From the IMG/VR virus record IMGVR_UViG_3300035034_002581: 64,000 nt of DNA; one strand, given 5' to 3'. Positions 1 through 34,396 of the stretch are shown here, piece by piece. The notes beneath the pieces were generated by a model, which saw only the letters and a program-made list of their open reading frames with translations, had not been told where the DNA came from and made no database searches. This stretch comes from a virus. Made by a program: the position numbers and the translations under genes. Within the stretch, counting starts at the first letter, position 1; each line of letters begins with the position of its first letter.

Positions 1-1630
1 CACCAATCCTTTGAATAATGTTCTCAATTGGAATAAGTGCTTTGCCCAAGACAGTGCCTCTGTCTTTTTCAAGTGCTTGGTATTGTGACCAAACTTCAGC
101 ATCAGCCTTCTCTAAAAAGTCTTTTTTGCCAACGTCTTTTTTGTTTCCGGTCACAAGTCTATAAGCAGCCTGCTTTAGAATACTGTCAGGAATTCCTCGC
201 TCTGCTAAGATTTTCTCTGCAAGGTGTATTGCTAGATCACCAACAGTATTGCTTTCGTCAAGTCCAGCTTTAGATATAACTTTGTCAAGCCTACCCTTAA
301 GATCGCTCATTACATGATCAGCGTCTAGTGATCTTTTAAGTTTGAGCAATGGCACAGCGCCCATTTTAATCTTGCTTTCAAGCTTGTCAATCGCATCTTC
401 AGCGTCGCTAACAAATGTGCGATAAGCAGCATTATCAACTTCAGCATCTGGTCCAACAGCTTCGGCCTGTATAAACCTAATGTGAGGTTCTTCATAGACA
501 ATAGTATTTGGATTGTTTGGTGCAAGTAAGGCAGACTCAACTAATACCTGGCCGTTTTGGAACAGCTGGTTGGCATTCTGGGGATTCTTCTTAACAACGT
601 AGTTAATGGCATCATATGCCATAAGAAAAGCGTCTCTGACGGTCATTCTGTCATTGTACTTAGATTGAATAGTGGCTCTATTCATGCCTCCACGCTGGAC
701 TCGATTCCAGTTTGCACCCTTGGAGAAGAATTGAAGCTCACCGTCTACGACACTGAATGTAACATTTTGACCATCCATCTTTTCTTGGATGTCTTCGAGC
801 TTCCCGTCGACGACCGCCTCGATCACTTCGTAAAGCTCAGACAGCGGCATATCAAGATCTTCATAGAAGTTAAGGATATGTGCCTCTAAACCCTCAGTAA
901 CAAGCGACTCTCTAATTAGGTTTCTAAGTAGTCTTGAAGACTCTGCCATTGGTAATCCTTGGAGGAGAACTGCAATTATTTTATCTTTATCGTCTTCTGA
1001 CAAGAAATTAGGAAGATACTTTGAGATTCTAGTTCTATCTCTCGTGCCGATAACAGCGCGAACATCTGAGCCTCTTACGTTTATGAGATCTGATAGTTCT
1101 TCGTCAGATGCATCTGGATACATTGTTTTCATCGCGGAGATCATACGATCGATTCCGTCATCTTCGTCATTTAGTCCACTATCAAAAGCTAATCTCTTTG
1201 AAGACACAAGATTGCCAAAGTATCTTTCTTCTTTCTCTGTACCAATGTAACTAGTGAATCTTCTTAGATCATTTGGATCAGAGTAGATAGTAAGCTTTGT
1301 CACACTATCAGGATCTATACCTAAGTTTGCAAGCTCAGTATTCGTGCTTTTTGCGACGTCCTCGATTGCCTTAAAAGTTTTCACGATTGGTGAAGGTGTT
1401 CCAAGCTGAACTGACAGCTTTTCACCGAACTTTTTCTCAAGAGAAGGCTTCACGATCTCAAAGATCTCTTTGCCCATTTCTTTTGTAAAAAGATAGTCTG
1501 ATCCTTTCTTGCGTCCAGAAATAGCATAGTAAAGTACTACAAAGTCATTCTCTCTCATTGCCAAAGCAAGCTTTGAAAAGTGACCTGTTGTAAATGGCTT
1601 AAATCCGCCGCCGAAAATTCCTACTCTCAT
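1..1630 (-). CDS. HxGH-type nucleotidyltransferase domain fused to Rnl2/Rnl3-like RNA ligase (partial; C-terminus beyond window start)
   Basis: Manual translation of the minus strand from ATG at ~1630 gives MRVGIFGGGFKPFTTGHFSKL. This is a G-x-F-x-P-x-T-x-G-H (HxGH) nucleotidyltransferase signature as in NMNAT/NadD-type enzymes. About 290 aa downstream lies EKMDGQNVTF, a KxDG adenylation motif of the Rnl2/Rnl3 type (compare T4 Rnl2 EKIHGTNFS). No stop is seen down to position 1, and the ORF is absent from the table only because it is truncated. The start overlaps the upstream gene's stop in an ATGA coupling. Confidence 0.5.
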   Translation of the reverse strand, partial: MRVGIFGGGFKPFTTGHFSKLALAMRENDFVVLYYAISGRKKGSDYLFTKEMGKEIFEIVKPSLEKKFGEKLSVQLGTPSPIVKTFKAIEDVAKSTNTELANLGIDPDSVTKLTIYSDPNDLRRFTSYIGTEKEERYFGNLVSSKRLAFDSGLNDEDDGIDRMISAMKTMYPDASDEELSDLINVRGSDVRAVIGTRDRTRISKYLPNFLSEDDKDKIIAVLLQGLPMAESSRLLRNLIRESLVTEGLEAHILNFYEDLDMPLSELYEVIEAVVDGKLEDIQEKMDGQNVTFSVVDGELQFFSKGANWNRVQRGGMNRATIQSKYNDRMTVRDAFLMAYDAINYVVKKNPQNANQLFQNGQVLVESALLAPNNPNTIVYEEPHIRFIQAEAVGPDAEVDNAAYRTFVSDAEDAIDKLESKIKMGAVPLLKLKRSLDADHVMSDLKGRLDKVISKAGLDESNTVGDLAIHLAEKILAERGIPDSILKQAAYRLVTGNKKDVGKKDFLEKADAEVWSQYQALEKDRGTVLGKALIPIENIIQRIG

Positions 1631-7121: not shown

Positions 7122-7430
7122 TTAATCTTTAAGCGGCGATTGTGCCTCCAATAGACTAAATAGATCTTCAACTTCGCTTTCTTCCAATTGTTTGACAACT
7201 TTGTTTCTTTTTTCTGTCTTAACCTTAGCTAAAAGACGCATCATGTATGGATCTTCAAGGCCAATCCTCTGAGCAACTTCTTCAAACACAGACTGAATTG
7301 AGAGTTCACCATTTTGAAGCAGTTTAACTCTTAGGCGTGTATGAGTCGTTTTTGTCATCTCGACGTGAACTGTCTTTTTCTTTGTAATTTCCCCAGCAAG
7401 AATCGATGCTCTTGTTCTCTTCTTTCTCAT
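7122..7430 (-). CDS. basic hypothetical protein
   Basis: 102 aa with a K/R-rich N-terminus. Confidence 0.3.
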   Translation of the reverse strand: MRKKRTRASILAGEITKKKTVHVEMTKTTHTRLRVKLLQNGELSIQSVFEEVAQRIGLEDPYMMRLLAKVKTEKRNKVVKQLEESEVEDLFSLLEAQSPLKD

Positions 7431-7963
7431 TAGATACCTCCCGGACCAGCTCCTGCAGCTGCGGGTCTACGAGGCTCATTATCAGAAGGCTCAAGTGATA
7501 GATCGAACTGTGTATCGAGTGTCTCTTCTAGTGCATCTACAAATCCAGGACCATAGTTTTCTTCAACAAAGTTAATTGATCTGTTTAAGATTACTGTCTC
7601 AATGTCCAGGAGGTTTCGATAATTTTGAACAAGTCGAGCAACTCTACGAGCAAACTCATCAATGTCGATAGGTGGTTTGTCTGGCACACCCTCTGCATCC
7701 GCTTCGACATCAGAGCTATTAGGTACATCACCTCCTTCTTCGCTCTCTTCTTCGACATCGTCTTCGGGTGCCTCTATGAGGGTGGCCAGACTGTATAAGT
7801 AACCCTCTTCTTTGAGTTCTTCATCAATTGATTCATTTTCAAATCTAATTAGTAGTGAGTCGATTTGATCATCAACAGAGTCATCTGACAAGCGTGCTTT
7901 TCCACTAATGTTTGCAAGCTCTTCAAAGATGAGAGTTCGTAATGTGTTCTTTGATAGTTTCAT
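7430..7963 (-). CDS. acidic protein, shared-leader family member 1
   Basis: The N-terminus is MKLSKNTLRTLIFEELANISGK. The remainder is strongly acidic (EDDVEEESEEGGDVPNSSDVEADAEG). Confidence 0.45.
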   Translation of the reverse strand: MKLSKNTLRTLIFEELANISGKARLSDDSVDDQIDSLLIRFENESIDEELKEEGYLYSLATLIEAPEDDVEEESEEGGDVPNSSDVEADAEGVPDKPPIDIDEFARRVARLVQNYRNLLDIETVILNRSINFVEENYGPGFVDALEETLDTQFDLSLEPSDNEPRRPAAAGAGPGGI

Positions 7964-8244
7964 TAGTAGGTGTCTTCCTCAATCTCTTGCCCTGACGCTA
8001 GCATTTCGTACGAAAATGCACTTTTTCCACAATCGTAATCATCTTCGTCTGCTAAGATCTCTTCTCCACCACAACTTGGGCAACCACAACCGCAGTCGCT
8101 TCCTGTTTCATCGTCATACTCTTCATATTCGTCATACAAATCAGGAGAATACTCTTGTGGAACTAATGCAAAGCTGTCTCTTCCAATTGAGCGTGACAGC
8201 TCTTCTCTAATAATTCTTTTGAGCGTGCTTTTCTTAATTTTCAT
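7963..8244 (-). CDS. acidic Cys-cluster protein, shared-leader family member 2
   Basis: The N-terminus is MKIKKSTLKRIIREELSRSIG. It carries a CGCGCPSCGG cluster and an acidic tail. Confidence 0.45.
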   Translation of the reverse strand: MKIKKSTLKRIIREELSRSIGRDSFALVPQEYSPDLYDEYEEYDDETGSDCGCGCPSCGGEEILADEDDYDCGKSAFSYEMLASGQEIEEDTY

Positions 8245-8492
8245 TACTTTTCTCCGAATTCTTTTCGAACGTCCGATCTTTCATCATCGTCAAGTTCTTC
8301 ATCCCAGATTTTACCTGCAATTTCTCTTGCGTGATCTTCGTCATCTATGCCTGGAGTTTTTTGAACTGTATCTAGAGTTTCTTTCCACCAATTTTCGGGT
8401 GCACGAGATTCTGCATCTTCGTCAGCTTCTTCAATATAAGAGTTCAACGACTCTCTAATTAGAGCGCGAAGCCTACCTTTGGTAATTTTCAT
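8244..8492 (-). CDS. acidic protein, shared-leader family member 3
   Basis: The N-terminus is MKITKGRLRALIRESLNSYIEE. The body is D/E-rich. Confidence 0.45.
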   Translation of the reverse strand: MKITKGRLRALIRESLNSYIEEADEDAESRAPENWWKETLDTVQKTPGIDDEDHAREIAGKIWDEELDDDERSDVRKEFGEK

Positions 8493-22700: not shown

Positions 22701-23254
22701 GCTGTACTTACGATAAGACCTTCGCTATGTTCTTTGAGCATGTCATAGTCAATACGAGGGAAGCGATAGAATCCATGCTTGAAAGACTTCTTGACGAGCC
22801 TGTAAATATTGTGAAGACCTTCTTGATTCTTGGCCAAGACAACTAGGTGATAGTATCGCTGCCAATCTGGCTTTCCGGACGATCTTGTCTCTTCCTCAGA
22901 CTCAATGACGTGTCCTTCCTCTTCCTCATTAGAAGTTTTCGCCTTTGCTGCAGCCTTTTGTGCTTTGTGAGCTTCATAATCTAATCGCCACTGTGTCAGA
23001 GAGGGGACAAAGTAAAACTCTACGCCATACAACTGACGGAACTTCTGACCTTTCTTTCTTCTCTTTTCATACTCTTTCCTTGCGTGAGCATGAGAGTTTG
23101 CATTTCCGTGATTTGTAATCGACCAAGCGTCCATTTCGTTGTTAAGAACGAATTCGACGTGATCTGATGGATATCCTAAACCATCGTATGTAGAGAATCC
23201 ATCGTGAGCGTGTAGACCGACGAATCGGTTAGGTGGTCGAATTAACTTTGACAT
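19688..23254 (-). CDS. dnaE: DNA polymerase III alpha subunit (DnaE-type replicative polymerase with N-terminal PHP domain)
   Basis: ~1190 aa. The N-terminal PHP motif RFVGLHAHDGFSTYDG matches E. coli RFVHLRVHSDYS. Downstream Pol III alpha core motifs follow. The start was moved to the second in-frame ATG (MSKLIRPP) because it is preceded by GCTAGGAGTATAATG, a perfect SD. Confidence 0.85.
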   Translation of the reverse strand: MSKLIRPPNRFVGLHAHDGFSTYDGLGYPSDHVEFVLNNEMDAWSITNHGNANSHAHARKEYEKRRKKGQKFRQLYGVEFYFVPSLTQWRLDYEAHKAQKAAAKAKTSNEEEEGHVIESEEETRSSGKPDWQRYYHLVVLAKNQEGLHNIYRLVKKSFKHGFYRFPRIDYDMLKEHSEGLIVSTACVGGAASGLIYKEFPDKKFDELHPDLLTGQAAVNVMNRLENMTDRFVDAVGQENFFLEMQFNSLPAQHLTNAALIKLAEKTSIPLVATADSHYPAPELWQARELYRRLGWKRKDDEGLPKKEDLKCELYPKNAQQMWDEYLAHKDKYPFYEGTEAIVRDSIERTHDICWDMCSDTWIDTEAKLPNFSTKEESAFNQLAKLVKEGLIKEGFAKNAEYIKRAHYELSDIKHLGFENYFLVMYQVFNLAAKSTLFGCGRGSGAGSLVNYLLGVTQVDPLKYGLLWERFLGRHRTSWPDIDSDVGDRDVLINAARELYGNDAVIPVSNFNTLKLKSLLKDISSFYDIPASEVFDLTRGLQEEVMPQAKDSNTEKSVFVLKHADCMKYSKKYRAFMDEYPEVKQHIAALFMQNKSLGRHAGGVIIAPPEQLERTMPIISVRGELQTPWTEGMNFRNLEDNGFIKFDFLGLTLMEDVRNCIRRILIKEGNPKPTFDEVKAYFDKHLNCRTNDPDDLHVFKTAYHQQDFAPGLFQFTAEGAREFCRQVKPTDATELGAITAIYRPGPLQANVHTDYVATKKQLLEGVAITYDHPIIEKILSPTLGYISFQEQFMLLAQELAGFSPAESDKLRKTLVKKSLDTMGKKGDERAAARDQFVKGAKKLHDIPEHISEELWKKIEFFSVYGFNKSHAIAYAIDSYFGAWLFTYHPEQWIATILQSENNSPTGLSKAIVELKRLGYEIAPIDINHSGFEWEYSYEINAFVPPLSSIKRVGKTAAAEILESRPFKSLEDLLFDDQGKWYHSKMNKGSFDSLCKIEAFNSLAEFKDGTFENHRQLHALLMDNWNVLRKGKKGKSAAGIKRDIKNGKAVPDILPDLIKSVEFDEDWTRTEKITFNADLRSAISNEQLFPEGFLERLEEKDIPPLTEIPGGVEAVAWFLCREVQVKKTKNGKTYHRIRAQDGDNNLVWLKVWGNLKEEIPRFSVWMCQAKGDDKWGPSTTAWKIRPLDLD
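23217..23250. repeat. 34-bp direct repeat copy 1 (covers dnaE codons 2-13)
   Basis: ccgacgaatcggttaggtggtcgaattaactttg is identical to the copy at 23799..23832. Confidence 0.8.
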
Positions 23255-23798
23255 TATACTCCTAGCTGTCATTACTCTAGCAGCTTTTAAGGACGGCCGA
23301 CTAGCTTATTTTTGTTCTTGTATATTGTACCATCAACTAGTACACAATTACACATTTTGTTTCCTCTTTGTAATCGAAAAGTATATACAAAGAAGAATGT
23401 TATTGAAGGCAGGCAGAACCTACGGAGAGGGTTACGACCCCTCTACCACTTTAGATCAACTCCCGTGGACGGCTATCCTCCGTCTTTGTATATCGGGCCA
23501 GCATTTAATGGTCTGCACGTTTAAAGTTGTCGCCCCCTTCTTCAGCTTTCATCATCTTACGTTATTAGATTACTTGCTTAGTGAAGCTGCCTGCTATCCT
23601 GATTGGGTGTTTCTCCTCAATAACAAAAATGATAATTTACTCTACTCATGTGACAGATTTGCTTTAGCTTTCTCAGCTCTCACTGCATCATTGAGAACTG
23701 CCAGCCTTCCTTCGCGACTTTTGTATGAATAAATTGCATCGTCTAACATCTTCTGTTCGACATGCGTTTTAAGGCCCTTACCTTCATTTGTTACCCAG

Positions 23799-23832
23799 CC
23801 GACGAATCGGTTAGGTGGTCGAATTAACTTTG
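23799..23832. repeat. 34-bp direct repeat copy 2 (~580 bp upstream of dnaE)
   Basis: Exact duplicate of the dnaE 5'-end sequence. It makes the 68/73-aa ORF 23642..23863 begin ...ITKLIRPPNRFVGW, mimicking the DnaE N-terminus. Confidence 0.8.
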
Positions 23833-24112
23833 TAATGGCGACCATAGTAAGTGTATTCGGCAATCCAAATATCTTCTTAAATTCTCGTCAGTAAAATAAG
23901 CTCTGGTACAGGAACAGACTCAAATATCTTGCTTACTTTTGAATTCGCAAAATAGCGGCAAGACAAAGCTAATGCTGTTAGTATGTATCCGAGCACTGCA
24001 ATGGTGACGGCGACACTATACACAATTGCACTTCAATTTATGTTCCTTTGAATGAGTTCGTTATACTATAACGTACAACAAAACTTTTTACAAGTCAAAG
24101 TTCTACACAGGA

Positions 24113-24340
24113 TTAGGCGTTGTATCCATCAGTAAATTCAGTAACAACATCAGATAGTATGTCAGTAGCATCTCTACCAGAGACACCTTCAGTTTTTTCT
24201 ACATCGACTAGAAATGCTTCAAGTGCTGTGTAAAGGCCAACTTCTTCTGCGATCTCATCGTACAATGGGTAAACGCCGTCTACTTCTGATATGACTTCTG
24301 CGATTAGGCCGCGAATTCTTTTTCTATTTAGTGTCTTCAT
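24113..24340 (-). CDS. shared-leader family member (paralog pair with the next gene)
   Basis: The internal Met start gives MKTLNRKRIRGLIAEVISEVDG, preceded by a cAGGAAAac RBS. YPLYDEIAEEVGLYTALEAFLVDVE is paralogous to the adjacent gene. Confidence 0.45.
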   Translation of the reverse strand: MKTLNRKRIRGLIAEVISEVDGVYPLYDEIAEEVGLYTALEAFLVDVEKTEGVSGRDATDILSDVVTEFTDGYNA

Positions 24341-24353
24341 GTTTTCCTGCTTA

Positions 24354-24605
24354 TTATCGTGCAAACGAAGGTTCAGAAAGGGACGATCTTAGCTTCTTTA
24401 TGTGTTCCATCATGAGATCTTCTAGTGCATCATATGCGTCTTCGTCAGTCGGGAATTTTTCCAATGTAATTGTCTCATCGACAAATCTTTCCATTGCGTC
24501 ATATAGCCCAACTTCTTGTGCAATCTCATCGTGTAGCGGGTAGGTGCTCTCTTTAAGAATGTTAGCTATTTCTTCTCGAATGAGCTTTTGAAACTTGGTT
24601 TTCAT
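24354..24605 (-). CDS. shared-leader family member (paralog)
   Basis: The internal Met start gives MKTKFQKLIREEIANILKES. YPLHDEIAQEVGLYDAMERFVDE matches the neighbour. Confidence 0.45.
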   Translation of the reverse strand: MKTKFQKLIREEIANILKESTYPLHDEIAQEVGLYDAMERFVDETITLEKFPTDEDAYDALEDLMMEHIKKLRSSLSEPSFAR

Positions 24606-24606
24606 C

Positions 24607-25011
24607 TTAGTCTTCCTCTTCATCAAATATGTCAACAAGGCTTGAAACACCAGTGTGAATTCCGTCTTCGTAGTCTTTCATTTTTTTAACTTTTTTCGGA
24701 CCCGCTTCTTCTTCTGCCATCTCTTGAGCTGCTCTAAGCTCTGCAGGTAGGTCTTTTACAGCGCCTTCGCCCATGAACCCTTTTGCAATCCAAGATCCGT
24801 CGGGCTTCAATATTAAGACTTCGTTTCCAAAAGCGCCTAAAGGATAAATTAAGACTTCGCCCTTATTTGATGTACTAACTGCCGTTTCACCTTGCTTGAT
24901 TCCAGCAGATAATTTTCGTGTGATAGACTGTGGTGAGTCTGACTGTCTTGCTACCAAATTGTCAAGTTCTTCTTTGATAAGCTTTCTAATTACTGACGTC
25001 GAGAGTTTCAT
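24607..25011 (-). CDS. shared-leader family member
   Basis: The N-terminus is MKLSTSVIRKLIKEELDNLVAR. The C-terminus is acidic (DIFDEEED). Confidence 0.45.
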   Translation of the reverse strand: MKLSTSVIRKLIKEELDNLVARQSDSPQSITRKLSAGIKQGETAVSTSNKGEVLIYPLGAFGNEVLILKPDGSWIAKGFMGEGAVKDLPAELRAAQEMAEEEAGPKKVKKMKDYEDGIHTGVSSLVDIFDEEED

Positions 25012-25065
25012 TTAAAAATGCTCCATACAATGTAATTATCACACGGAGCAGCTAAGTAACCTAAC

Positions 25066-26148
25066 TCAATAAAACTTGGTCAAGTCGATATTGAGTTCAT
25101 CAGCAGCTTCTAGATACTTAAGCGGATTGTAGTGTGATCCGCCACAAATTTTAGAGAGTATTGTCTCTACAACATCTTCAATACCTGATTCAAGATTAAC
25201 CGTTGGCGACCATCCAGAGGTCTTTCTGAAGCTTTTTGATGACAACCTATGGTTTCCAAGGTAGTCAGTTTTTGGATTCCATCTGACTATTTCTGACGGT
25301 ACTTTAAGCTGATCAATTATTTTGATAAATGGCGGCCAGTCTTTAAATGATACTGTGTGTGATCTCATACTGGCTGCTAATACTTGATCAACTGTGTCAA
25401 TAATCTCACCAGTAACTCTAGGATCTTCAGCGGCGACAATGAAATCTTGACCCCACAGATTTTGTTCAGCTGCCATTAACACAGCAGTACAATAATCCTT
25501 GACATGAAGATAGTCTTTGTACTTGGTTGGATCGAGAAACATATCGATTTCTTCTCTTCCTATCATTGCTCCGTAAATAGACTTGGCAATTAGAGAGTTC
25601 ATGTCGCCTTCGCCGCCATATGCAAAGAGAGGCCTGATGATGTTTGTTTTGCCTTTCGATTCTCTTACGATCATGTCACCTGTTTGTTTTAGCTGACCGT
25701 AGTAAGTTGTAGGCTTTACCGTGCTTTTCTCTGTGATGAGTGTGTGTTGGTAATTTGGAGTGTCATAGATTACTGTCGTTCCCATGTAGCTTACTAAGAT
25801 TCCTTCTGCTTCGCATGCTCTAACAATGTTGTAAGTTCCGTTCACGTTTGTAAGAGTTGCCTCAGCAGCAGACAGTGCAACGACGTCTGTACCTACAACT
25901 GCAGCATTGTGTATAACAAGATCAACCTCGAAATGTGTAAGTGCTTTTCTCCATTCCACGATTGTATTCTTGTGTACGCAAGGCTCCATAAACATAGAGG
26001 GCTGATGTGGTTCGCCTTTGACCCGCCAGATAAGATGTTTAGCAGCTTCTTCAGTACACAAAGAAACGAACTCATGGCCTCGTTTTTTGATTTCTTTAAT
26101 TAGTCCTTGAGCGATGAAACCTTTTTCACCAGTGATTGCAATTTTCAT
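25066..26148 (-). CDS. NAD(P)-dependent epimerase/dehydratase (SDR family)
   Basis: MKIAITGEKGFIAQGL is a Rossmann motif. YGQLK is the YxxxK motif. The length is 360 aa. Confidence 0.6.
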   Translation of the reverse strand: MKIAITGEKGFIAQGLIKEIKKRGHEFVSLCTEEAAKHLIWRVKGEPHQPSMFMEPCVHKNTIVEWRKALTHFEVDLVIHNAAVVGTDVVALSAAEATLTNVNGTYNIVRACEAEGILVSYMGTTVIYDTPNYQHTLITEKSTVKPTTYYGQLKQTGDMIVRESKGKTNIIRPLFAYGGEGDMNSLIAKSIYGAMIGREEIDMFLDPTKYKDYLHVKDYCTAVLMAAEQNLWGQDFIVAAEDPRVTGEIIDTVDQVLAASMRSHTVSFKDWPPFIKIIDQLKVPSEIVRWNPKTDYLGNHRLSSKSFRKTSGWSPTVNLESGIEDVVETILSKICGGSHYNPLKYLEAADELNIDLTKFY

Positions 26149-26156
26149 TTTTCCCT

Positions 26157-26318
26157 CTACTTAATGTTACAAGCTTGACACCAACAACCTGCTGGGTTGA
26201 CCATACATTCCGAAGGGTCCCAGTCTTTTCTTCTTCGCTTCTTCTTGCGTTTTTCCTTCAAAGGGCCCTTAGTAACCATGGGGGCGTTATTCAAAAGCGC
26301 GTCATTTTTGGTGTCCAT
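26157..26318 (-). CDS. small basic zinc-ribbon protein (below 60-aa cut-off)
   Basis: Manual translation gives MDTKNDALLNNAPMVTKGPLKEKRKKKRRRKDWDPSECMVNPAGCWCQACNIK, which has C...C and CxC..C motifs. The listed plus-strand ORF 26136..26333 is its antisense shadow. Confidence 0.3.
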   Translation of the reverse strand: MDTKNDALLNNAPMVTKGPLKEKRKKKRRRKDWDPSECMVNPAGCWCQACNIK

Positions 26319-26393
26319 TTATCTTTCCTCTAAACAAAGCAGGCTATCTCTAACTATTTGTCAAAGATAGCCCTTTTCATGTATGATCAAAGA

Positions 26394-26837
26394 TTACTCA
26401 ATGTTGCCTTCATACATCTCAACAGCAAGTGATCCATCTGCTAAAGAGCGCTTGATATAGGCATCAAGATCTTCAAGTGATGTACAGACTGTGACACCAG
26501 ATGCCGACAACATAAGGTTAAACTTAGCGCCTTCAGGTAAACCTGCACAGAAGTAAACGATTGGTCGATCTAGGCAATGGAAATACCCTGCCTCGAAGAT
26601 TGAACCCATGTCCTTGTTTCGAGTGTTGCAGATCATCCAGTCTGAATCTTGCATGCCCTTGATGTTGCCACTGAAGATCTTGTCTTGCAGCGAAAGGGAT
26701 GCATCAGCAGGTGCAACAGCTTCATCACGTGGCGAGAAGTAATTCAACCCATTGTCGTCAAGAACTTTCTTGATTGCCTCAAGCTCTTCGAGCCACTCTG
26801 GACTAAACCAACCGCTTGCTATGTAACACTTCTTCAT
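26394..26837 (-). CDS. nucleoside 2-deoxyribosyltransferase / dNMP N-glycosidase (Rcl/DNPH1)-family protein
   Basis: MKKCYIASGWFSPE corresponds to the family N-terminus (YxAGPxF). DMGSIFEAGYF matches the catalytic D-x-G-[ST]-x-F-E-x-G-Y motif. Confidence 0.6.
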   Translation of the reverse strand: MKKCYIASGWFSPEWLEELEAIKKVLDDNGLNYFSPRDEAVAPADASLSLQDKIFSGNIKGMQDSDWMICNTRNKDMGSIFEAGYFHCLDRPIVYFCAGLPEGAKFNLMLSASGVTVCTSLEDLDAYIKRSLADGSLAVEMYEGNIE

Positions 26838-26862
26838 TCGTATTCTCCCTTTATTGTATTTG

Positions 26863-27846
26863 TCATTCTACCCACCCAACGTCAGTTTTCCATGCAGAAT
26901 ATTCTTCTCGAATGTCTTTCACTTCCTTGTCATAACCTTCCATTAGTTGGTCGAATCTAAAGTTCTCGGGCTTACCAAGTTCTGGGTCTGTTCCGTTAAC
27001 TTCATTTCTGTAGCAGTTGTAGATGAAGTCTTCTGGGTGCCAGTCAAACTTATCGGAGTCGGCATCGGGCCAGTACAGATTCGTAGCCTTTCCAGTACGA
27101 GCTGTTGCAATGTAGTGGCGAGAAGCTGCATGCGGATTGATGCATGATGTAATCTCTGGGAACAACTTAGCGACAGCAATAAACATCTGGTATGCCATCA
27201 CATTGTCTGTTGTAGGCTGAATCTGCTTATCAAAACGCTGACGAAGGAAGTTGAGCATATCCTTTAGGTTGCATCGGGCGTAGTAGTGTGTCTCAATAGC
27301 TCTAGGAAGGATTGTCCTTGCATCCATGATTGAAATCTTACGAGAATCAATCATATCACAGTACAACTCCTTTGCATCTTCAACGTGCTTCTTCCAACGC
27401 TCGTAGAGTTCTGGACTGTTCTGGACAGGACCTGGAACTAGCGCATTGCTATGTGACTGCCAACGATCTCCAGTACACTGAGCGCTGAATGAGAACGTTC
27501 TGTGTCTGATGAGATGGGTGACTGTCTGTAGATCGATGCCTTCAATGCGGAAGGTAAAGTCCAAAGTCTCCATAACAGTCGGAAGTGCTTTGTAATTGAG
27601 AGCGAGTTCGAGTGCTTCATGTCCCTTCCATGCTGGGACATCGTCCGGGTTGTGCATTCCTGGTGCGTCTTCCCATGTAGCATTGATAAACTGATAGACC
27701 ATTCGCCTGACACGCTCAGGATCAGGATAGTCGAGCAAAACTACATTTAAAGAGTCAAGATCGTTCTTGAACTCAGTTGTTGGCTTTTCGTCAAAGCGAA
27801 TCGCCATGGGAAATTCTACGGGCTTTAATTTTTTGTCTTGTGGCAT
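26863..27846 (-). CDS. divergent ThyX-like (flavin-dependent thymidylate synthase family) paralog
   Basis: FTFRIEGIDLQTVTHLIRHRTFSFSAQCTGDRW matches the ThyX core (FxFxI...sRa...Ql.RHRxxSfsqxSxRY). A Cys replaces the signature Ser and TGDRW replaces SQRY. It is 327 aa against 229 aa for the canonical ThyX at 32317. Confidence 0.5.
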   Translation of the reverse strand: MPQDKKLKPVEFPMAIRFDEKPTTEFKNDLDSLNVVLLDYPDPERVRRMVYQFINATWEDAPGMHNPDDVPAWKGHEALELALNYKALPTVMETLDFTFRIEGIDLQTVTHLIRHRTFSFSAQCTGDRWQSHSNALVPGPVQNSPELYERWKKHVEDAKELYCDMIDSRKISIMDARTILPRAIETHYYARCNLKDMLNFLRQRFDKQIQPTTDNVMAYQMFIAVAKLFPEITSCINPHAASRHYIATARTGKATNLYWPDADSDKFDWHPEDFIYNCYRNEVNGTDPELGKPENFRFDQLMEGYDKEVKDIREEYSAWKTDVGWVE

Positions 27847-27899
27847 CCTTTATTCCTCACTAAATATTACAACTTTTGACGTAAATGTTCAAACTATTT

Positions 27900-28070
27900 C
27901 TAGACATCATTCCAGTAGCTATCTGGCTCAGATGACGCTTGCTTAATTACCCTTAGCACCTTCGACCATTCGAAGAATAAGTAGTGTTCACAATTGTCAG
28001 CACCATGAAGATGCTTCTCGGATTGCCACACATTTATGGATTCTAGAGAGTCAATAATATTTTTGGTCAT
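27900..28070 (-). CDS. small hypothetical ORF (56 aa)
   Basis: Manual translation gives MTKNIIDSLESINVWQSEKHLHGADNCEHYLFFEWSKVLRVIKQASSEPDSYWNDV. It lies in an otherwise ORF-poor ~600-bp region. Confidence 0.2.
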   Translation of the reverse strand: MTKNIIDSLESINVWQSEKHLHGADNCEHYLFFEWSKVLRVIKQASSEPDSYWNDV

Positions 28071-28457
28071 TAATCGCTCAAAGCTTTAAGTTGATATGAG
28101 ATGATCTCTGGCTTGCCCTTTAGTTTAAATCGGAACCCTGTGCTCTTTACAATGACAATATCATAAAAGTCAGCTGAGTCTAGTTGGTCTTGGACGAGAC
28201 TGCTATAATCACTGCTAGTGTCTACAAATGAACCTAGGAGTTCACTGCATCAACGCCATTATCGTCTGTCCATGTTGAAATAGCAAGAAATCTCTGTGAA
28301 TTAGACTCAACGAGCTTGATCATTTCTTTATGACGTCCGCTTAGAATTTTGTCAGTCAAGTAGCCGTTTTTATACAAGGCCCTGACAAGAGGTGATGTAA
28401 ATTCTAAGACGAAGTCAATTGTTTTTTATATCTTTTTCTTTGTCGCTTACACATAGT

Positions 28458-29378
28458 TTAGTCCTTCTTTGTGAGTCTTTTAACAAAATTGTACAACCCA
28501 TCCGCTGTATCGTACATTGTCACATTTTCAACATTTTCTAGATCAGCATTAACTGATGTTCTGGGTGATAGTGTATGTACTCCGTGCTTTGCGTATTCTG
28601 TTGCATGCTTTGGTGAATCATCAATAGCACAAACAACCTTTTCGCTCTTGTAGTAATCAGTTCTTGCTAGCCACAAATATTTCTCAGGTGAGAAACTAAT
28701 TCGATGACATTTGATACCACTCTTTTCAAGCCAGGCGTAAGTGTCGTATTTGCATACAAGGAGATCGGCTGGTCGCGCTGTCAATAGATGGATCCAGTAT
28801 CCTTCGTCGTAGAGTTTGTTTATCGTTTCTACGATGCTAATGTTTGTTCTCATTGATTTGAGTCGTCTAGCCTCAATGAACTTCATGTACATTTCTTCTG
28901 TGATTGAGTAGTAAGCAGTTGAATCTTCATCAGGAACGAAGTCAGTATTTGCCTTAACCCATCGTGTGCATTCGTCTTTAAAGGGCGTCAAAACGTCATC
29001 AACATCAACGATGATAACGGGCTGCCCTTCCCACTTGACCTGCTCTTTATTAAAGCGCGTGTTTAGATGCAGATCACGTACACTGAAGGCGTCTTCAAAG
29101 TCATCGTGAGTAATCCCCCACGTGTTTAAGATAGCTAGAAGATACCTGAAGGCGTCGACAGATTCGTGTAAGATTTTGCTAAGCTCTGGACTTTCATCTT
29201 TTGCACGGTGGTGACGATAATTGACGCCATCTAAGATATCGCCAACTTCCTTTTGTAAAGAAGCAGAGAACTGCAACGTAAGTTTCTCTCTATCTTCTTG
29301 AGTTAGATTCTCGTGATCAATAAAGTTCTCGGAAAATCGCTTTTGCTTTAGTAGCATTTCTTTAAAAGTATCTTTCAT
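28458..29378 (-). CDS. MazG-like NTP pyrophosphohydrolase domain fused to HAD-superfamily phosphatase (5'-nucleotidase-like)
   Basis: The N-terminal ~110 aa parallel the standalone MazG-like ORF at 29422 (EVGDILDGV...ILHESVDAFRYLLAIL versus EEVFEALNHL...FLEEWVDAMNYFFSVL). The C-terminal half has PVIIVDVDDVLTP, HAD motif I (DxDx[TV]). Confidence 0.5.
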   Translation of the reverse strand: MKDTFKEMLLKQKRFSENFIDHENLTQEDREKLTLQFSASLQKEVGDILDGVNYRHHRAKDESPELSKILHESVDAFRYLLAILNTWGITHDDFEDAFSVRDLHLNTRFNKEQVKWEGQPVIIVDVDDVLTPFKDECTRWVKANTDFVPDEDSTAYYSITEEMYMKFIEARRLKSMRTNISIVETINKLYDEGYWIHLLTARPADLLVCKYDTYAWLEKSGIKCHRISFSPEKYLWLARTDYYKSEKVVCAIDDSPKHATEYAKHGVHTLSPRTSVNADLENVENVTMYDTADGLYNFVKRLTKKD

Positions 29379-29421
29379 GTAATCCTCTAGTAATTATTAC
29401 ACATTACTAGAGGATGTTCAA

Positions 29422-29838
29422 TTAATAGTCACTTCTAAGTCGCTCATGGATAACTCGATCCTTTTCTACATAGGACTCATATATTTCATGAGGTGTGAAT
29501 CCTGCAAGAATAAGCACAGAGAAGAAGTAATTCATAGCATCTACCCATTCTTCTAGAAACTTGTCACGATCAAAGTCAGGCATTTCTGTCTTGCGATGAG
29601 GTTTCCAGTTCTTTAGATGATTAAGTGCTTCAAAGACCTCTTCTACGCCACGTAGAGAGACGTCTCTTAAGTTCCTCTGTGACTCTTTTGACCTTAAGTC
29701 CAAAGGCCATTCAGACTGTGCTCCGGGTCGATTCCTACTTAAAGCATGCATAAACTCTTCACGAAGTCTAAACATCTCTTCAAACCTGTCAGGGACAGGA
29801 GGCACCGGCATTGGCGCATCTTCATCAAAGCGATCCAT
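29422..29838 (-). CDS. MazG-like all-alpha NTP pyrophosphohydrolase
   Basis: RGVEEVFEALNHL matches ExxExxEA. DKFLEEWVDAMNYF matches the EExxD(x)L second MazG motif. Confidence 0.5.
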   Translation of the reverse strand: MDRFDEDAPMPVPPVPDRFEEMFRLREEFMHALSRNRPGAQSEWPLDLRSKESQRNLRDVSLRGVEEVFEALNHLKNWKPHRKTEMPDFDRDKFLEEWVDAMNYFFSVLILAGFTPHEIYESYVEKDRVIHERLRSDY

Positions 29839-30080
29839 TATTCACTCTCGTTGTCTTCTGATAGCATCTTTGTCTGGTGGTCTTCGACTTCTTGCATCAT
29901 AGAGTTAATTTGCTTTTCAAAAAGCTCCCTATAATCTGCAGTAAGAGCAAGCTTACCATCTTCTGTCGGTTCAACTTCGATCATTCGAATATGATCAATG
30001 ATGTCTGTTCCCGACAAGATCGCGAGTTGCAATGTGTCTCTAAGTTGCCCAATTAGTTCGTCTGCGAAATGATACTTCAT
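29838..30080 (-). CDS. hypothetical protein
   Basis: 80-aa ORF. Its start overlaps the MazG-like stop in an ATGA coupling. Confidence 0.3.
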   Translation of the reverse strand: MKYHFADELIGQLRDTLQLAILSGTDIIDHIRMIEVEPTEDGKLALTADYRELFEKQINSMMQEVEDHQTKMLSEDNESE

Positions 30081-30123
30081 ACTATCTCCTATTTGACTAT
30101 CTTAATTCTTCTGTCTTATTTGT

Positions 30124-30954
30124 TTAAGTTTGAACTGACGGTACCCAATGGGTAGTTCGCTTATCTTTTGTTGTTTCTTTGATTACCTTGTTACCTTCGG
30201 GGTCTTCTTTCTTACCGTAAACTTTTAGCTTAAATTGGAAAGACCCTTCGTTTCCGTTAGGGCTCCTGTAGTTCTTTATAGTGGTTCCACGGTATTTGTA
30301 GCTTGATGACATTACATCACATATGATTTTGCATAAAAGCTCCCACTCCTTATCTGATACATCATAGACAGGACGATTAGGTGATATCTTTGACATATAC
30401 AGCACTTCTGCCTTTATATAATTTCCTACTCCTGCAAAATAACTCTGATTCATTAGTACTTCTGCAATTGTCTTCTTTGTTTGACGCAACTTAGCTTTTG
30501 TAATGAACTTTTTGCTTTGCAATACGCTTTGTCGCAAAGGATCCCAACCAAGACTGTCAAGTTTCTTTTGAAGAGCTTTGGATTCTGAAACATACTTTAG
30601 TGTTCCGAAATTTCGCATATCACAAAACACAAGCGTTGTATTATTGTCAAGTGTGAATCTAGCATGACCATGTTTTGGAAACTCCTCTCCGTCTTTTACA
30701 ATGGACCAGTTTCCTGTCATCCCAAGCGTATTAAAGATGTAAGGTGCATCTTCGAGGAGAAAGTAAATAAACTTACCCTTGGCACGAACAGCTTCAATCA
30801 TAGCTGGAAGAGAAGACTTAAGATCTTCATCACCAAAAGGCTTCTTTTCTCTTGAGTATCTTCCTGATGCGTATTGCACTTTCGTGATTGATCTTCCTTC
30901 TACAAATCGTGAGATTTGATCTACTACGATCGCAACTTCAGGGCCTTCTGGCAT
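30124..30954 (-). CDS. formamidopyrimidine/endonuclease VIII-family DNA glycosylase (Fpg/Nei)
   Basis: The N-terminus MPEGPEV is the hallmark Fpg/Nei motif, with Pro2 as nucleophile and Glu3. The size (276 aa) fits. Confidence 0.75.
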   Translation of the reverse strand: MPEGPEVAIVVDQISRFVEGRSITKVQYASGRYSREKKPFGDEDLKSSLPAMIEAVRAKGKFIYFLLEDAPYIFNTLGMTGNWSIVKDGEEFPKHGHARFTLDNNTTLVFCDMRNFGTLKYVSESKALQKKLDSLGWDPLRQSVLQSKKFITKAKLRQTKKTIAEVLMNQSYFAGVGNYIKAEVLYMSKISPNRPVYDVSDKEWELLCKIICDVMSSSYKYRGTTIKNYRSPNGNEGSFQFKLKVYGKKEDPEGNKVIKETTKDKRTTHWVPSVQT

Positions 30955-30956
30955 TA

Positions 30957-31223
30957 CTACTCCATCTCGTCGTCAAAGCAGTCCATTGTATTCATTGTAA
31001 AAATCGGACCTAGAGAAATTGAATGAATAGGTCCATCGTACCAATCTTCGTGATAGCCGAATGTCCAGTACTTACGTTTTACAAGCAGATGCAGTGTCAT
31101 GTTTTGCTTGTACTTAAAAAAGGGAACTTTAACATTGAGAAAACTAAAGGCTATAAATCCTGCTGTTTGATCAATTATGTGAATCCCTATTTCTGCTTTT
31201 AGCACTTTAAAGGACAGCAGCAT
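30957..31223 (-). CDS. hypothetical protein
   Basis: 88-aa ORF. Confidence 0.25.
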   Translation of the reverse strand: MLLSFKVLKAEIGIHIIDQTAGFIAFSFLNVKVPFFKYKQNMTLHLLVKRKYWTFGYHEDWYDGPIHSISLGPIFTMNTMDCFDDEME

Positions 31224-31587
31224 CTACAGCGTCTTTTTTGATAAGGTGTGAAACAATATCGACAACTACATCAACTTCAAATATTTCATCGACCCTATCA
31301 GCTAAAGGCTTAACTCTATCAGCTAAAGGCTTAACTCTTTCACGTACATCATTCTTTAGTGTCTCCGCAAAGTACGCACGATTAAATTCCTTTGAGTTGA
31401 TAGGCTCCTTGATATCGTGAACGATTCGGAACAGCTCATTGTGAAACTTATTAGATGGGTATATCTTGATGCTGCTCAACCTTTCTCTTAGTGTGTCTCT
31501 ACTAATATCTCTTGCAACGTACTGGTCGACGAGTTCCATTAGTGCATTAATTACTTCGTTATCTACTTTTTTACTCACTGTCTTCAT
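31207..31587 (-). CDS. hypothetical protein carrying an in-frame perfect 21-bp tandem duplication
   Basis: 126 aa. RVKPLADRVKPLADRV is encoded by 2 x ctatcagctaaaggcttaact at ~31295..31336. Confidence 0.35.
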   Translation of the reverse strand: MKTVSKKVDNEVINALMELVDQYVARDISRDTLRERLSSIKIYPSNKFHNELFRIVHDIKEPINSKEFNRAYFAETLKNDVRERVKPLADRVKPLADRVDEIFEVDVVVDIVSHLIKKDAVDAAVL

Positions 31588-31837
31588 CCATTAGCATTAC
31601 TGCCATTGCAGCGTAGTTGTGTAAGTCTATCAGCGTATCACGAAGGCTTTCGTCTTCAACAAGCGAGACACCATTTTTTGTGATAGCAGACATTCTACGA
31701 ATCTTATCACCCATCCTAACCAAGACACCGACAGGACCAAAGTCGGAAAATGCATCTCCGTAGTCCTTGTTCTTTCTTGAAAAGAGTGCAAATGCCTCGT
31801 CTTGGACAGCTCTTAGCTGCTTCTCTCTATCGTTCAT
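31571..31837 (-). CDS. hypothetical protein (possible small all-alpha NTP-PPase-like)
   Basis: 88 aa. EAFALFSRKNKDYGDAFSDFGPVGVLVRMGDKIRR. The similarity is weak. Confidence 0.3.
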   Translation of the reverse strand: MNDREKQLRAVQDEAFALFSRKNKDYGDAFSDFGPVGVLVRMGDKIRRMSAITKNGVSLVEDESLRDTLIDLHNYAAMAVMLMDEDSE

Positions 31838-31838
31838 G

Positions 31839-32311
31839 TCATTCCTCTTTTTGTATGCGGCGTCGCCAATTGACTACTAACGAACCGCTATTCTTTTTGT
31901 ACTGCGAAACGTGCCACTTACCCCACTTTCCTGGATACACCTTCCAGCCTTTTGGAGACTCAATGTCGATGGGTGCGAGTTTCTTAAAGTTAATGTCTGC
32001 ATCATTTGGCTTTCTTGTCGCACGAGAAGAAATAGTCACAATGCCTTGCCACTTAGTCTTAACTGTCGGTATGAAAAACTCTTCACAGTTAGCAAGCGGG
32101 TTATTAGTTACCAGCTTTTTCATATTTCGCTCGATGTATAAGTTCTTATCACACTGATTTCTTCTTCGTATCTATAGATTATGGTTCTATTGTGTGCATA
32201 ACATTTATAAAGCGCTCCTATAGATTCTGTCTTGACAAGTTGTAAAACTAAACAAAAGCCCAGAACTTCATCACATGAGTTTGCATATACTAACGTTCCA
32301 GGCTTAATCAT
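31839..32311 (-). CDS. two small hypothetical ORFs (94 and 63 aa)
   Basis: ORFs 31839..32123 and 32120..32311, packed between neighbouring genes. Confidence 0.25.
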
Positions 32312-32316
32312 TATTG

Positions 32317-33006
32317 TTATGTCCTATTTGCAAATGCCGCGACGGATACTGGCCACAATGTCAATGCAATTGTGTTTAGTGCCTCAGCAACTTTCTGAAT
32401 TTCCCACTGGGCACCTTCATGGGTTCTCAATCTAATAAAATGCATCAAGTTATGCAAATTTACTGTACCATAATATTCTGTATAAAGATTTTGAGGTAAT
32501 ACTCCTCTCGCTTGTTCGCGACAGACTCCTGCGTCAAGCAATTTTTCAAAAAGTGCAAGACTGTGTATATGATGCACGAGGACTGCTTCTGACGCTTTTG
32601 TTTTTATGTTATCGAGTGAAACAATGTCAGGGTCGATCAATTCATTTTCGTTCGATGCCTGTCTGTTAGATTTATGCTGTGTTCTAAACTCTTGTGGTTC
32701 ATAGAACCTCATGTTAATGTCAGTGTATCTTCTACTAATCTCGTTGTATGCCCATGTCCTATGACGATGATGCTGTGATCTAACGTAAAGTGGCACTGTA
32801 AATCTAAATGTTGCTGTGCAGTGCTCGAATGGTGACGTATGATTGTGCTTGGCAAGATAGTTGATAAGCTTTTCATCTTTACTGTCAACTTCTCCTTTTT
32901 GTCCACCAAAAGAAACTCGAGCAGCGTTAACAACGCTTAAGTCAGTGCCCATGTGACTAATAAGTTCTACTTCACCAATTCCGTCTTCGTATAGTTCAAT
33001 CTTCAT
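32317..33006 (-). CDS. thyX: flavin-dependent thymidylate synthase ThyX
   Basis: Canonical RHRTWAYNEISRRY gives RHR-x7-S. The N-terminus has VVNAARVSFG. The length is 229 aa. Confidence 0.85.
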   Translation of the reverse strand: MKIELYEDGIGEVELISHMGTDLSVVNAARVSFGGQKGEVDSKDEKLINYLAKHNHTSPFEHCTATFRFTVPLYVRSQHHRHRTWAYNEISRRYTDINMRFYEPQEFRTQHKSNRQASNENELIDPDIVSLDNIKTKASEAVLVHHIHSLALFEKLLDAGVCREQARGVLPQNLYTEYYGTVNLHNLMHFIRLRTHEGAQWEIQKVAEALNTIALTLWPVSVAAFANRT

Positions 33007-33791
33007 TAGAAATGTTCCTTGTATTCTGTTGCTGTTTCAATCTTGTAAAGCGTTGTGTAGTCAGCAGTCTTGTCACTTAGTCCCAAAACTTCTAATCCCT
33101 TCTTGGTTTTCTTTCCAAGATAGCCGTCAATCGATCCTACGTTCATTCCGCATCGATGTAACTGCGCTTGTAGTGCACGATTTCTTACTCTTAAGAAATC
33201 TCCGACACCAATATCTAGAGACGCACACATCGCAGCTTCTTTATACCCAAGGACGTCATAGGTTTTTGACCAGATTCCCATATAGTCAAAGTGCCAAGAT
33301 TCTGATTTTCCTTCCCAGGGCCCTTTGATAACTGGTCTCCAACCTAATGGAACAGCTAACTCCCACAATTTATCAAGTTGCTTGTCGGCTGGAACACCTG
33401 GAAACTTTAGCATGTCAACGTGTATATCAATCGCTCGCCCTGAATTGTGGAAAGAGAATCCGGGCTCGGCAACAAATACGTTTTTCATGGTCTTTGAGTC
33501 GTATTTGCTGGATGACCTGTCAGGCTTCCCTGCTTTGACCCATCTTATATAGCGATCACGAAGCTCTGCCTGTGTCTTGAATTCTCTAAGCCCATCCGTA
33601 ATCCTAAGATCTCCGCACTCTTTAAGTACTGCAGAATTTAAATTGACAAGTGCACTTTCAGCTTCAGCTACAAACCATCCTGTTTTAAGCTTAGAAAGCG
33701 ATGTTAACGAATGTCTAAGACTGTTTATTGGGTAAGACGATACCACAGATTTATGAATTCTAACTAATTCTATTCTCGGTGTGATTTTCAT
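33006..33791 (-). CDS. peptidase M15 (L-alanyl-D-glutamate/VanY-like) endolysin with peptidoglycan-binding domain
   Basis: SFHNSGRAIDIHVD matches the M15 SxHxxGxAxD zinc motif. The C-terminal segment IDGYLGKKTKKGLEVLGL is PG_binding_1-like. Confidence 0.7.
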   Translation of the reverse strand: MKITPRIELVRIHKSVVSSYPINSLRHSLTSLSKLKTGWFVAEAESALVNLNSAVLKECGDLRITDGLREFKTQAELRDRYIRWVKAGKPDRSSSKYDSKTMKNVFVAEPGFSFHNSGRAIDIHVDMLKFPGVPADKQLDKLWELAVPLGWRPVIKGPWEGKSESWHFDYMGIWSKTYDVLGYKEAAMCASLDIGVGDFLRVRNRALQAQLHRCGMNVGSIDGYLGKKTKKGLEVLGLSDKTADYTTLYKIETATEYKEHF

Positions 33792-34396
33792 TATTCAAAC
33801 CTTGTTTCTACTGTTACTGTTCGCGTCATCTTAGGTACTCTAATGAAGTTCGCGATACCTAGATTTTTTGTTTCTGTAGGTGACAAATACCAGTCTGCGT
33901 TTCCACGCTTGAACATTTCCTTGATAAAGAAGTCTTCAGGCTTCCCACAGTTTCTTGCCATGATCTTGAAGAGTCGTTCATTCAATCTTTTCATTTCTTC
34001 TGTAGAAGCTACAATGTCTGTGTGCTTTCCTCTAGAACCACCTGATATTTCGTGTATCATGACACGAGCATTCTTGTCAATGAATCGATAGCCATCTGTT
34101 CCCATTGATAGCAGAAATGATCCACATGACATAGCTTTACCCACAGCAATAGTGGCAACAGGCTTCTCAGCGTTTTGAATATCAGATATCATAGAGATCA
34201 AGCTATCAACATATCCACCATAAGAATCGATGACGATGGGAATAACAGGCTGACCTGATTCATGAGCCTTCGACATGAATTCACTAAATTTCTTTGCCGA
34301 CTCTTCGTCGAACTTTGAAACTCTCATGAGTAGGGGCACGCTTCTAAATTTACACTCTGTTATTTCGTTGCCGATAATCTGTGTTGTAACTCTCAT
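33791..34396 (-). CDS. clpP: ClpP-family serine protease
   Basis: ATIAVGKAMSCGSFLLSMGTDGYRFIDKNARVMIHEISGG covers the ClpP catalytic Ser region (G-x-A-x-S-M-G) and His region. Confidence 0.75.
   Translation of the reverse strand: MRVTTQIIGNEITECKFRSVPLLMRVSKFDEESAKKFSEFMSKAHESGQPVIPIVIDSYGGYVDSLISMISDIQNAEKPVATIAVGKAMSCGSFLLSMGTDGYRFIDKNARVMIHEISGGSRGKHTDIVASTEEMKRLNERLFKIMARNCGKPEDFFIKEMFKRGNADWYLSPTETKNLGIANFIRVPKMTRTVTVETRFE

Follow-up and report, generated by a model that had tools for sequence, protein, structure and literature searches.

The 64,000-nt viral stretch recorded as IMGVR_UViG_3300035034_002581 (the window), in which every real gene lies on the minus strand, encodes at positions 24,113–25,011 three small adjacent genes, A, B and C, whose products open with the same short N-terminal leader. 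With moderate confidence, drawing on the sequences and on analogy with phage T4, we read this leader as a capsid-targeting propeptide comparable to the T4 capsid-targeting sequence (CTS), and A, B and C as leader-tagged internal head proteins that would be trimmed and delivered with the DNA.

A common leader on genes A, B and C

Gene A (25011–24607, minus strand) encodes 134 residues. Its codons 1–16 (24964–25011, minus strand) specify the leader MKLSTSVIRKLIKEEL, which scores 17.9 bits in the leader profile introduced below and contains I-K-E at residues 12–14 as a candidate protease site; an acidic orphan cargo follows (isoelectric point (pI) 4.7). Gene B (24605–24354, minus strand) encodes 83 residues and begins with the short leader variant MKTKFQKLIREEI, in which I-R-E occupies residues 9–11, while its cargo is acidic, predicted to be helical and includes YPLHDEIAQEVGLY. 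Gene C (24340–24113, minus strand), a paralog of gene B, encodes 75 residues and carries the leader variant MKTLNRKRIRGLIAEVI with I-A-E at residues 13–15. The leaders of B and C are indel variants, that of B being 3 residues shorter and that of C 1 residue longer, and they score poorly in an ungapped profile; their membership therefore rests on the core hydrophobic-R/K-x-hydrophobic-I-x-E pattern.

That the three genes share a leader had been noted in the original prediction, which also held that internal methionines are the true starts. Both points hold, with all three genes on the minus strand at the positions given. The gene A ATG has a GGAG 9 nt to its 5′ side. The gene B ATG, at 24605, lies 1 nt past the gene A TAA and is preceded by GAGGAAG at −13 to −7; the GTG start at 24650 that the table of open reading frames (ORFs) lists for this gene would create a 44-nt overlap with gene A. 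The gene C ATG at 24340 has AGGA at −8 to −5, and the tabulated TTG start at 24364 would likewise overlap the preceding gene. Public gene calls on an independent contig that is 99.99% identical give exactly 134, 83 and 75 residues for A, B and C. These calls and the ribosome-binding sites agree with the Met1 start of over 100 homologous leaders. For annotation, the leader is of direct use, as it shows which start codon is the true one in many small genes.

The paralogy of B and C, also proposed earlier, is confirmed (BLASTP, 45% identity, E-value 5e-15), but the duplication is not recent, as had been supposed. Synonymous sites are saturated (about 4.2 synonymous substitutions per site (dS), NG86 method), nonsynonymous divergence (dN) is 0.59, and identity amounts to 42.5% at the amino acid level, 51.6% at the nucleotide level and 41% at third positions. 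The pair is old. A dN/dS comparison, suggested as a check, is unreliable at such divergence and gives no sign of positive selection.

Searches for homologues of A, B and C returned only self matches among 5.8 billion proteins, in a word-indexed search that is limited by its word index, and jackhmmer found none in about 200 related loci. As far as their sequences tell, the three are strain-specific orphans. Since A and B are without homologues, AlphaFold2 was run on single sequences; the gene B model is all-helical, with a predicted local distance difference test score (pLDDT) of 67 and a predicted template modeling score of 0.40, and the gene A model has a pLDDT of 43. Both are too poor for a fold search.

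A consensus scan places a terminator-like hairpin (25019–25050, minus strand; 13 pairs followed by TTTTT) between the epimerase gene and gene A. It ends 7 nt before the gene A ATG, and the gene A GGAG lies within its 3′ arm. The GGAG would be sequestered there, an arrangement that might couple termination to translational control of gene A. Just 3′ of gene C, ORF 23877–24023 (minus strand) encodes a hydrophobic product of 48 residues from a GTG start, with a probable single transmembrane segment, and a promoter-like site (24093–24065) precedes it.

Sequence and spread of the leader

The leader is 13–17 residues long and follows the consensus M-K-[IL]-[TS]-x-x-Q-L-R-x-[IL]-I-[KR]-E-E-[LIV]; its conservation stops at residue 16, with none detectable beyond. 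In the window, the core motif occurs seven times on the coding strand, six of these at ORF N-termini, and zero times on the opposite strand, compared with 0.08 matches, and 0.01 at N-termini, expected from residue shuffles. The core-motif pattern was written after the sequences had been seen, and an ungapped leader profile of 16 positions serves as the independent check. We collected 80 related loci through their DnaE polymerase (55–62% identity). In 3.35 Mb of related loci, the profile gave 140 matches at ≥10 bits against one in reversed decoys, and 171 against five at ≥8 bits. All 48 of the matches at ≥20 bits have Met at profile position 1, and the matches begin a median of 8 codons from an upstream stop codon.

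The leader is not confined to these loci. Of 1.84 billion representative proteins, 5,843 reach E ≤0.001 against a leader-anchored profile built from short metagenomic hits and the leaders of the window, and 148 reach ≤1e-10; the 5,843 are protein clusters at 50% identity, and the sources of leader proteins include Tara Oceans and Pacific Ocean Virome records. A leader-only profile search of the 5.8-billion-protein database, which owing to the choice of candidates gave only proteins of 33–70 residues, placed the leader at residue 1 in 49 of 51 matches. The remaining two are longer upstream gene calls in which the leader begins at an internal Met. Proteins this short yielded nothing on domains.

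These data bear on whether selection acts on the peptide or on the nucleic acid beneath it. Were the conserved element a translation-initiation enhancer or the boundary of a recombination cassette, the motif would be expected at gene 5′ ends, where it is always found; AAA or AAG follows the ATG in most cases, and purine-rich codons resembling a ribosome-binding site precede the internal copies in fused ORFs. We nevertheless regard a nucleic-acid signal as very improbable. Leucine codons (CTC, CTT, CTA and TTA) and arginine codons (AGA, CGA and CGC) differ among the window leaders while the amino acids are kept, which argues for selection on the peptide, and it is a peptide profile that finds the 5,843 proteins. 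Because synonymous codons vary freely between leaders and Rfam gave no hit in 22800–25300, an explanation at the RNA level is largely refuted.

The leader does not have the makeup of a secretion signal. Sec and Tat signals place a hydrophobic h-region of about 10–15 residues after a basic n-region, and Tat signals add S/T-R-R-x-F-L-K. The leader is charged throughout (R9, K10, K13, E14 and E15), with acidic residues directly after it and a mean Eisenberg hydrophobicity of −0.08 to −0.26. As it has no hydrophobic core, we excluded a Sec or Tat signal peptide.

Behind this conserved start the cargos are unrelated. The 103 unique leader proteins, of 66–806 residues, fall into 77 cargo families, of which 68 are singletons. 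Pfam matched none of 73 leader proteins, and PHROG matched a single one, through a family whose function is unknown; for the 149 best representative hits, Pfam gave only sporadic weak matches, essentially none of them convincing. We also considered polyvalent or MuF-fused packaged toxins and set them aside, as no MuF or other head-morphogenesis domain of this kind occurs in these 73 plus 149 proteins. Cargo pI is not unusual overall, although the cargos of A, B and C and of a first leader cluster in the window (described below) are strongly acidic (pI 4.0–4.7). The locus upstream of DnaE is itself variable: one or two leader genes lie within 4 kb in 11 of 68 relatives, with a different cargo each time.

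The leader also recurs within single ORFs. Counted over the 149 listed representative hits that were not already in hand (150 listed), a set in which ranking by summed score over-represents multi-leader proteins, 146 contain two or three copies at ≥8 bits, and the first copy stands at residues 1–3 in 143 (proteins P0054–P0202; L053:20149-20865 is a further example). The copies are spaced by a median of 126 residues. Internal leaders keep their Met in 131 of 172 cases, with L, I or V in some of the others (possible alternative start codons), and are preceded by E-[GNS]-K, which resembles an in-frame ribosome-binding site. Such ORFs may be tandem genes that have no stop codon between them, or true polyproteins that the prohead protease would cut into modules. 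Separately, leader-like stretches that lack the Met occur about 20 residues before the stop codon of some ORFs in related loci, at L074:13984, L025:3377, L048:4396, L066:9840 and L010:1817; these may be what is left of leader genes since deleted, or may act as C-terminal tags.

The original prediction saw in the leader genes an arms-race effector family, shaped by tandem duplication and divergence. An arms race is plausible. A single fast-evolving family, with the leader as its slowest-evolving part and not as a portable signal, would account for the tandem paralogs B and C, for small cargo families of 8, 5, 5 and 4 members, and for the tandem arrays in which leader genes occur. It fits poorly with the range of protein lengths, with the lack of detectable similarity among the singleton cargos, with the abrupt end of conservation at residue 16, and with leaders that stand two or three times in one ORF before different cargos. 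We therefore consider common descent unlikely. The sequences suggest instead that the leader proteins are unrelated cargos with a portable N-terminal tag.

Links between the leader and a T4-type head

The window encodes a DnaE polymerase, DnaB helicase, UvsX-like recombinase, SSB, ribonucleotide reductase and a ClpP homologue, and, among structural genes, a baseplate hub, a tail tube and two tail sheath paralogs in tandem. The sheath paralogs, both phrog_23, lie at 58146–61136 (996 residues) and 61173–63869 (at least 898 residues in the window, 1020 in a sister contig) on the minus strand. This sister IMG/VR contig (L183) shares 5.5 kb with the window at 99.5% identity and continues upstream of the sheath genes, and it is from this contig, outside the 64-kb window, that the T4-type head genes are known. 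They comprise a Portal_T4 gene (PF07230, 1e-70), a Peptidase_S77 prohead protease gene (PF03420, 2e-25, above the gathering score; phrog_207, 1e-49), a gene for a very acidic scaffold-like protein of 507 residues, a Gp23 major capsid protein gene (PF07068, 1e-76) and a gene for a gp15-like sheath stabilizer. The closest cultured capsid proteins are those of Flavobacterium phage immuto (46% identity), Microcystis phage Mel-JY01 and Rhodothermus phage RM378, which puts the phage in a far-T4-like group that has no close cultured relative.

Several side features were seen in these head modules. The portal gene harbors an intein with an HNH endonuclease (L183:1168-4446; PF14890 2e-10, PF13392 2e-5). 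A 689-residue ORF without a Pfam match directly follows the capsid gene at L082:2975-5044, and its sequence looks to us like that of an endonuclease/methyltransferase.

The leader is tied to the head module in four ways. First, a gene lies directly 3′ of that for the S77 protease and has homologues in 41 loci; its product opens with M[KAS][KR]L[ST]RxxLKxIVKECLVEIL.EG and scores 8.5–18.8 bits in the leader profile where an ATG start permits (14 of 38 loci that carry protease and capsid genes). Second, LR756508.1, an independent, uncultured huge phage of 484 kb, has about nine leader genes in total on the two sides of its S77 protease gene and another seven after the gene for its Gp23-like capsid protein. 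The protease match of LR756508.1 is split by about 1.1 kb.

Third, the leader contains a candidate cleavage site for such a protease. An [LIV]-x-E motif with its Glu at residues 10–24 is present in 99 of 100 unique leaders, compared with 32.5% of control N-termini; this count admits Val at the first position, beyond the L/I-x-E of T4. The Glu is at residue 14 in 65 of the 100 leaders and at residue 18 in 18, the motif standing about 4 residues later in leaders that lack Glu14. As residue 18 lies outside the profile by which the leaders were found, the result there is not circular. The capsid protein has a comparable feature: its propeptide holds a conserved ...LLENQAAQLLRE (LLRE) followed by a Gly-rich stretch in 75 homologues, where, by analogy, T4 gp23 would be cut after L-x-E. 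Fourth, in the head-neck module, a protein with the leader-like start MMLLRETIRRMITE matches ART-PolyVal (3e-6, below the gathering score), a weak hint that recalls the packaged T4 Alt protein.

We propose the following mechanism. The leader, helix-prone and hydrophobic at positions 3, 8, 11, 12 and 16, would dock its protein on the scaffolding core during prohead assembly. The T4-type Peptidase_S77 prohead protease would then cut after the Glu of the leader-terminal [LIV]-x-E (IKE in A, IRE in B and IAE in C), and the freed cargo would remain in the head with the DNA and enter the host at infection. A, B and C would thus be three small acidic internal proteins that are ejected and that, if T4 IPI is a guide, probably counter host defenses or take part in early takeover.

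T4 offers the closest known parallel. Its internal proteins share only a 10-residue CTS (PMC3012670), MKTYQEFIAE (PMC8442874). Positions 4 and 7 of this sequence act in targeting to the scaffolding core and positions 8 and 10 in processing; cleavage by the gp21 protease falls after L/I-x-E (PMC9026906). Once mature, the internal proteins form a diverse set of injected factors against host defense, IPI* among them (PMC3012670). As with IPI, IPII and IPIII, small proteins that are otherwise unrelated have a short N-terminal tag in common here, (L/I)-x-E stands at the end of the tag as a sequence feature, the head genes are of the Gp20, Peptidase_S77 and Gp23 types, and the cargo genes are scattered, variable among relatives and orphan-like. 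The ip genes of T4 are also scattered. The gene B stretch MKTKFQKLIREE resembles the pattern of the T4 CTS. In contrast to T4, the tagged genes are far more numerous (at least eight in 64 kb), the replication module has a DnaE polymerase, and the leader, at 13–17 residues, is longer than the CTS with its 10 and follows a consensus of its own, MKITxxQLRxIIKEEL. The leader proteins also have no detectable homology to T4 IPI, IPII or IPIII by Pfam or PHROG match. Because homology is lacking and the consensus differs from MKTYQEFIAE, we do not file the leader system as a member of the CTS family; by analogy, it would work like the CTS system.

Two other groups of systems are comparable in part. 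The inner-body or ejection proteins of phiKZ, 201phi2-1 and SPN3US are processed by gp21-like proteases at S/A/G-x-E; these too are large phages with a diverged T4-type prohead protease and with many head-internal proteins whose N-terminal propeptides are cut after Glu (PMC9026906). Their propeptides, unlike the leader, are long and without a single common short tag, their cleavage motif differs at P3, and we found no homology between the leader system and these inner-body proteins. Outside phages, the likeness is one of analogy only. In bacterial microcompartments and encapsulins, a short terminal peptide with a poorly conserved linker (the encapsulation or cargo-loading peptide) loads unrelated cargo, and encapsulin shells have the HK97 fold; these are other organisms and other shells, and the peptide is not removed by proteolysis.

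The leader might instead address its proteins to a target other than the capsid, as a docking or degradation tag recognized by a protease or chaperone, such as the phage ClpP, or by a shared hub protein of host or phage, and the tagged proteins would then be short-lived early effectors. The window does encode a ClpP-family protein (33791–34396; PF00574, 3e-27) in a non-structural setting beside thioredoxin, VanY and ThyX genes, and the majority of its leader genes lie among genes for metabolism and replication. We think a tag of this kind improbable, given the conserved leader gene that adjoins the S77 protease gene, the clustering of leader genes at the LR756508.1 head module and the resemblance of the near-universal [LIV]-x-E to the T4 prohead protease motif; nor did we establish that the leader matches any N-terminal motif known for ClpX or ClpA. 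Both this possibility and descent from a single family are less well supported than a capsid-targeting propeptide.

Several observations nonetheless weigh against a capsid-targeting role. Most leader genes of the window sit among metabolic and replication genes and not among head genes, as just noted. The leader is longer than the T4 CTS and different in sequence, homology between the two is not demonstrable, and in-frame multi-leader ORFs have no T4 precedent. Glu14 is found in just about two thirds of leaders and so is not universal. The hydrophobic moment of the leader is moderate (about 0.4) and not significant against shuffles, and we therefore dropped an argument from an amphipathic helix. 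What the S77 protease of this clade recognizes is inferred. Finally, a tblastn search of cultured phages with the consensus leader and with the head-module leader protein found none that carries the leader, its sole outcome being a weak match in the uncultured record LR756508.1, and Flavobacterium phage immuto, the closest cultured phage by capsid protein, shows none within the 42 kb that surround its head genes.

The principle of a capsid-targeting tag is known from T4, while neither the leader tag nor its abundance and modular arrays seem to have been described before: we found no paper that describes the leader in a search of 8 million full-text papers with leader strings, and no Pfam, PHROG or cultured-phage record covers it. 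More tentatively than for its role as a propeptide, we propose that the leader serves as an address label for the head, undescribed so far and readable from sequence, in very abundant uncultured marine T4-type and huge phages, and is carried by at least 5,843 clusters, almost all without known domains. If so, the effector families that the tag marks for delivery by the virion would number in the thousands, among them in-frame arrays of two or three tagged modules to be freed by the prohead protease, and the packaged and injected proteome of widespread uncultured phages could be read from sequence alone. Thousands of proteins that are dark matter today would become candidates for first-strike anti-defense or takeover functions. 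The leader would also be a natural plug-and-play system for loading cargo into capsids, and a second short tag for foreign proteins, and the T4 CTS principle would emerge as a general, independently varied strategy of phages with Gp21/Gp23 heads.

Other leader genes and neighboring features of the window

By sequence, at least eight window genes carry the leader, A, B and C being joined by at least five more. The first cluster consists of three adjacent minus-strand genes with starts at 8492, 8244 and 7963. They are 8244–8492 (82 residues, MKITKGRLRALIRESL, 22.7 bits), 7963–8244 (93 residues, MKIKKSTLKRIIREEL, 20.9 bits) and 7430–7963 (177 residues, MKLSKNTLRTLIFEEL, 19.1 bits). Two further genes, with starts at 56862 and 58143, flank the tail tube gene. 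The one that adjoins it (56149–56862, minus strand) encodes a basic protein of 237 residues that begins with MRIKLKEFKQIVREEI (10.1 bits) and has an internal repeat, EAPFG.VTSAGP.QRG, in the copies EAPFGSVTSAGPSQRGARRF and EAPFGGVTSAGPKQRGPKGF; a similar APFGSGM motif follows the leader in several short metagenomic proteins (P0007–P0016). The other, a weaker case between the sheath and tube genes (57418–58143, minus strand), encodes 241 residues and begins with MRLNKATLRNLILTEM (8.6 bits).

A ligase-like ORF at 949 with MAESSRLLRNLIRESL was considered as a ninth leader and dropped, as the sequence is internal to a fusion ORF and scores only 5.9 bits. This ORF (2–1630, minus strand) joins an N-terminal cytidylyltransferase-like nucleotidyltransferase part (GGGFKPFTTGHF) to an RNA-ligase-like domain (KMDGQN; PF09414, 0.002), and it runs off the end of the window.

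Beside the cluster of A, B and C, the stretch 25066–33006 (minus strand) encodes an NAD-dependent sugar epimerase/dehydratase, a nucleoside 2-deoxyribosyltransferase and two ThyX-family proteins (229 and 327 residues), together with a Fapy-DNA-glycosylase-like gene and a DUF1599 gene. The set has the look of one for modifying nucleotides or DNA. Speculatively, the DNA of the phage may be modified, which would fit injected inhibitors of modification-dependent nucleases. On the other side of the cluster, a 73-residue ORF (23642–23863, minus strand) contains ITKLIRPPNRFVGWV, a repeat of the N-terminal MSKLIRPPNRFVGLHAHDG of the DnaE polymerase, whose gene starts at 23272. The 370-nt gap between the two (23273–23641) has no coding-strand ORF, and this may be a duplicated 5′ end or a scar left by a mobile insertion. 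The DnaE match extends over about 5 kb, and not 3.5 kb, in several relatives, which suggests inserted elements.

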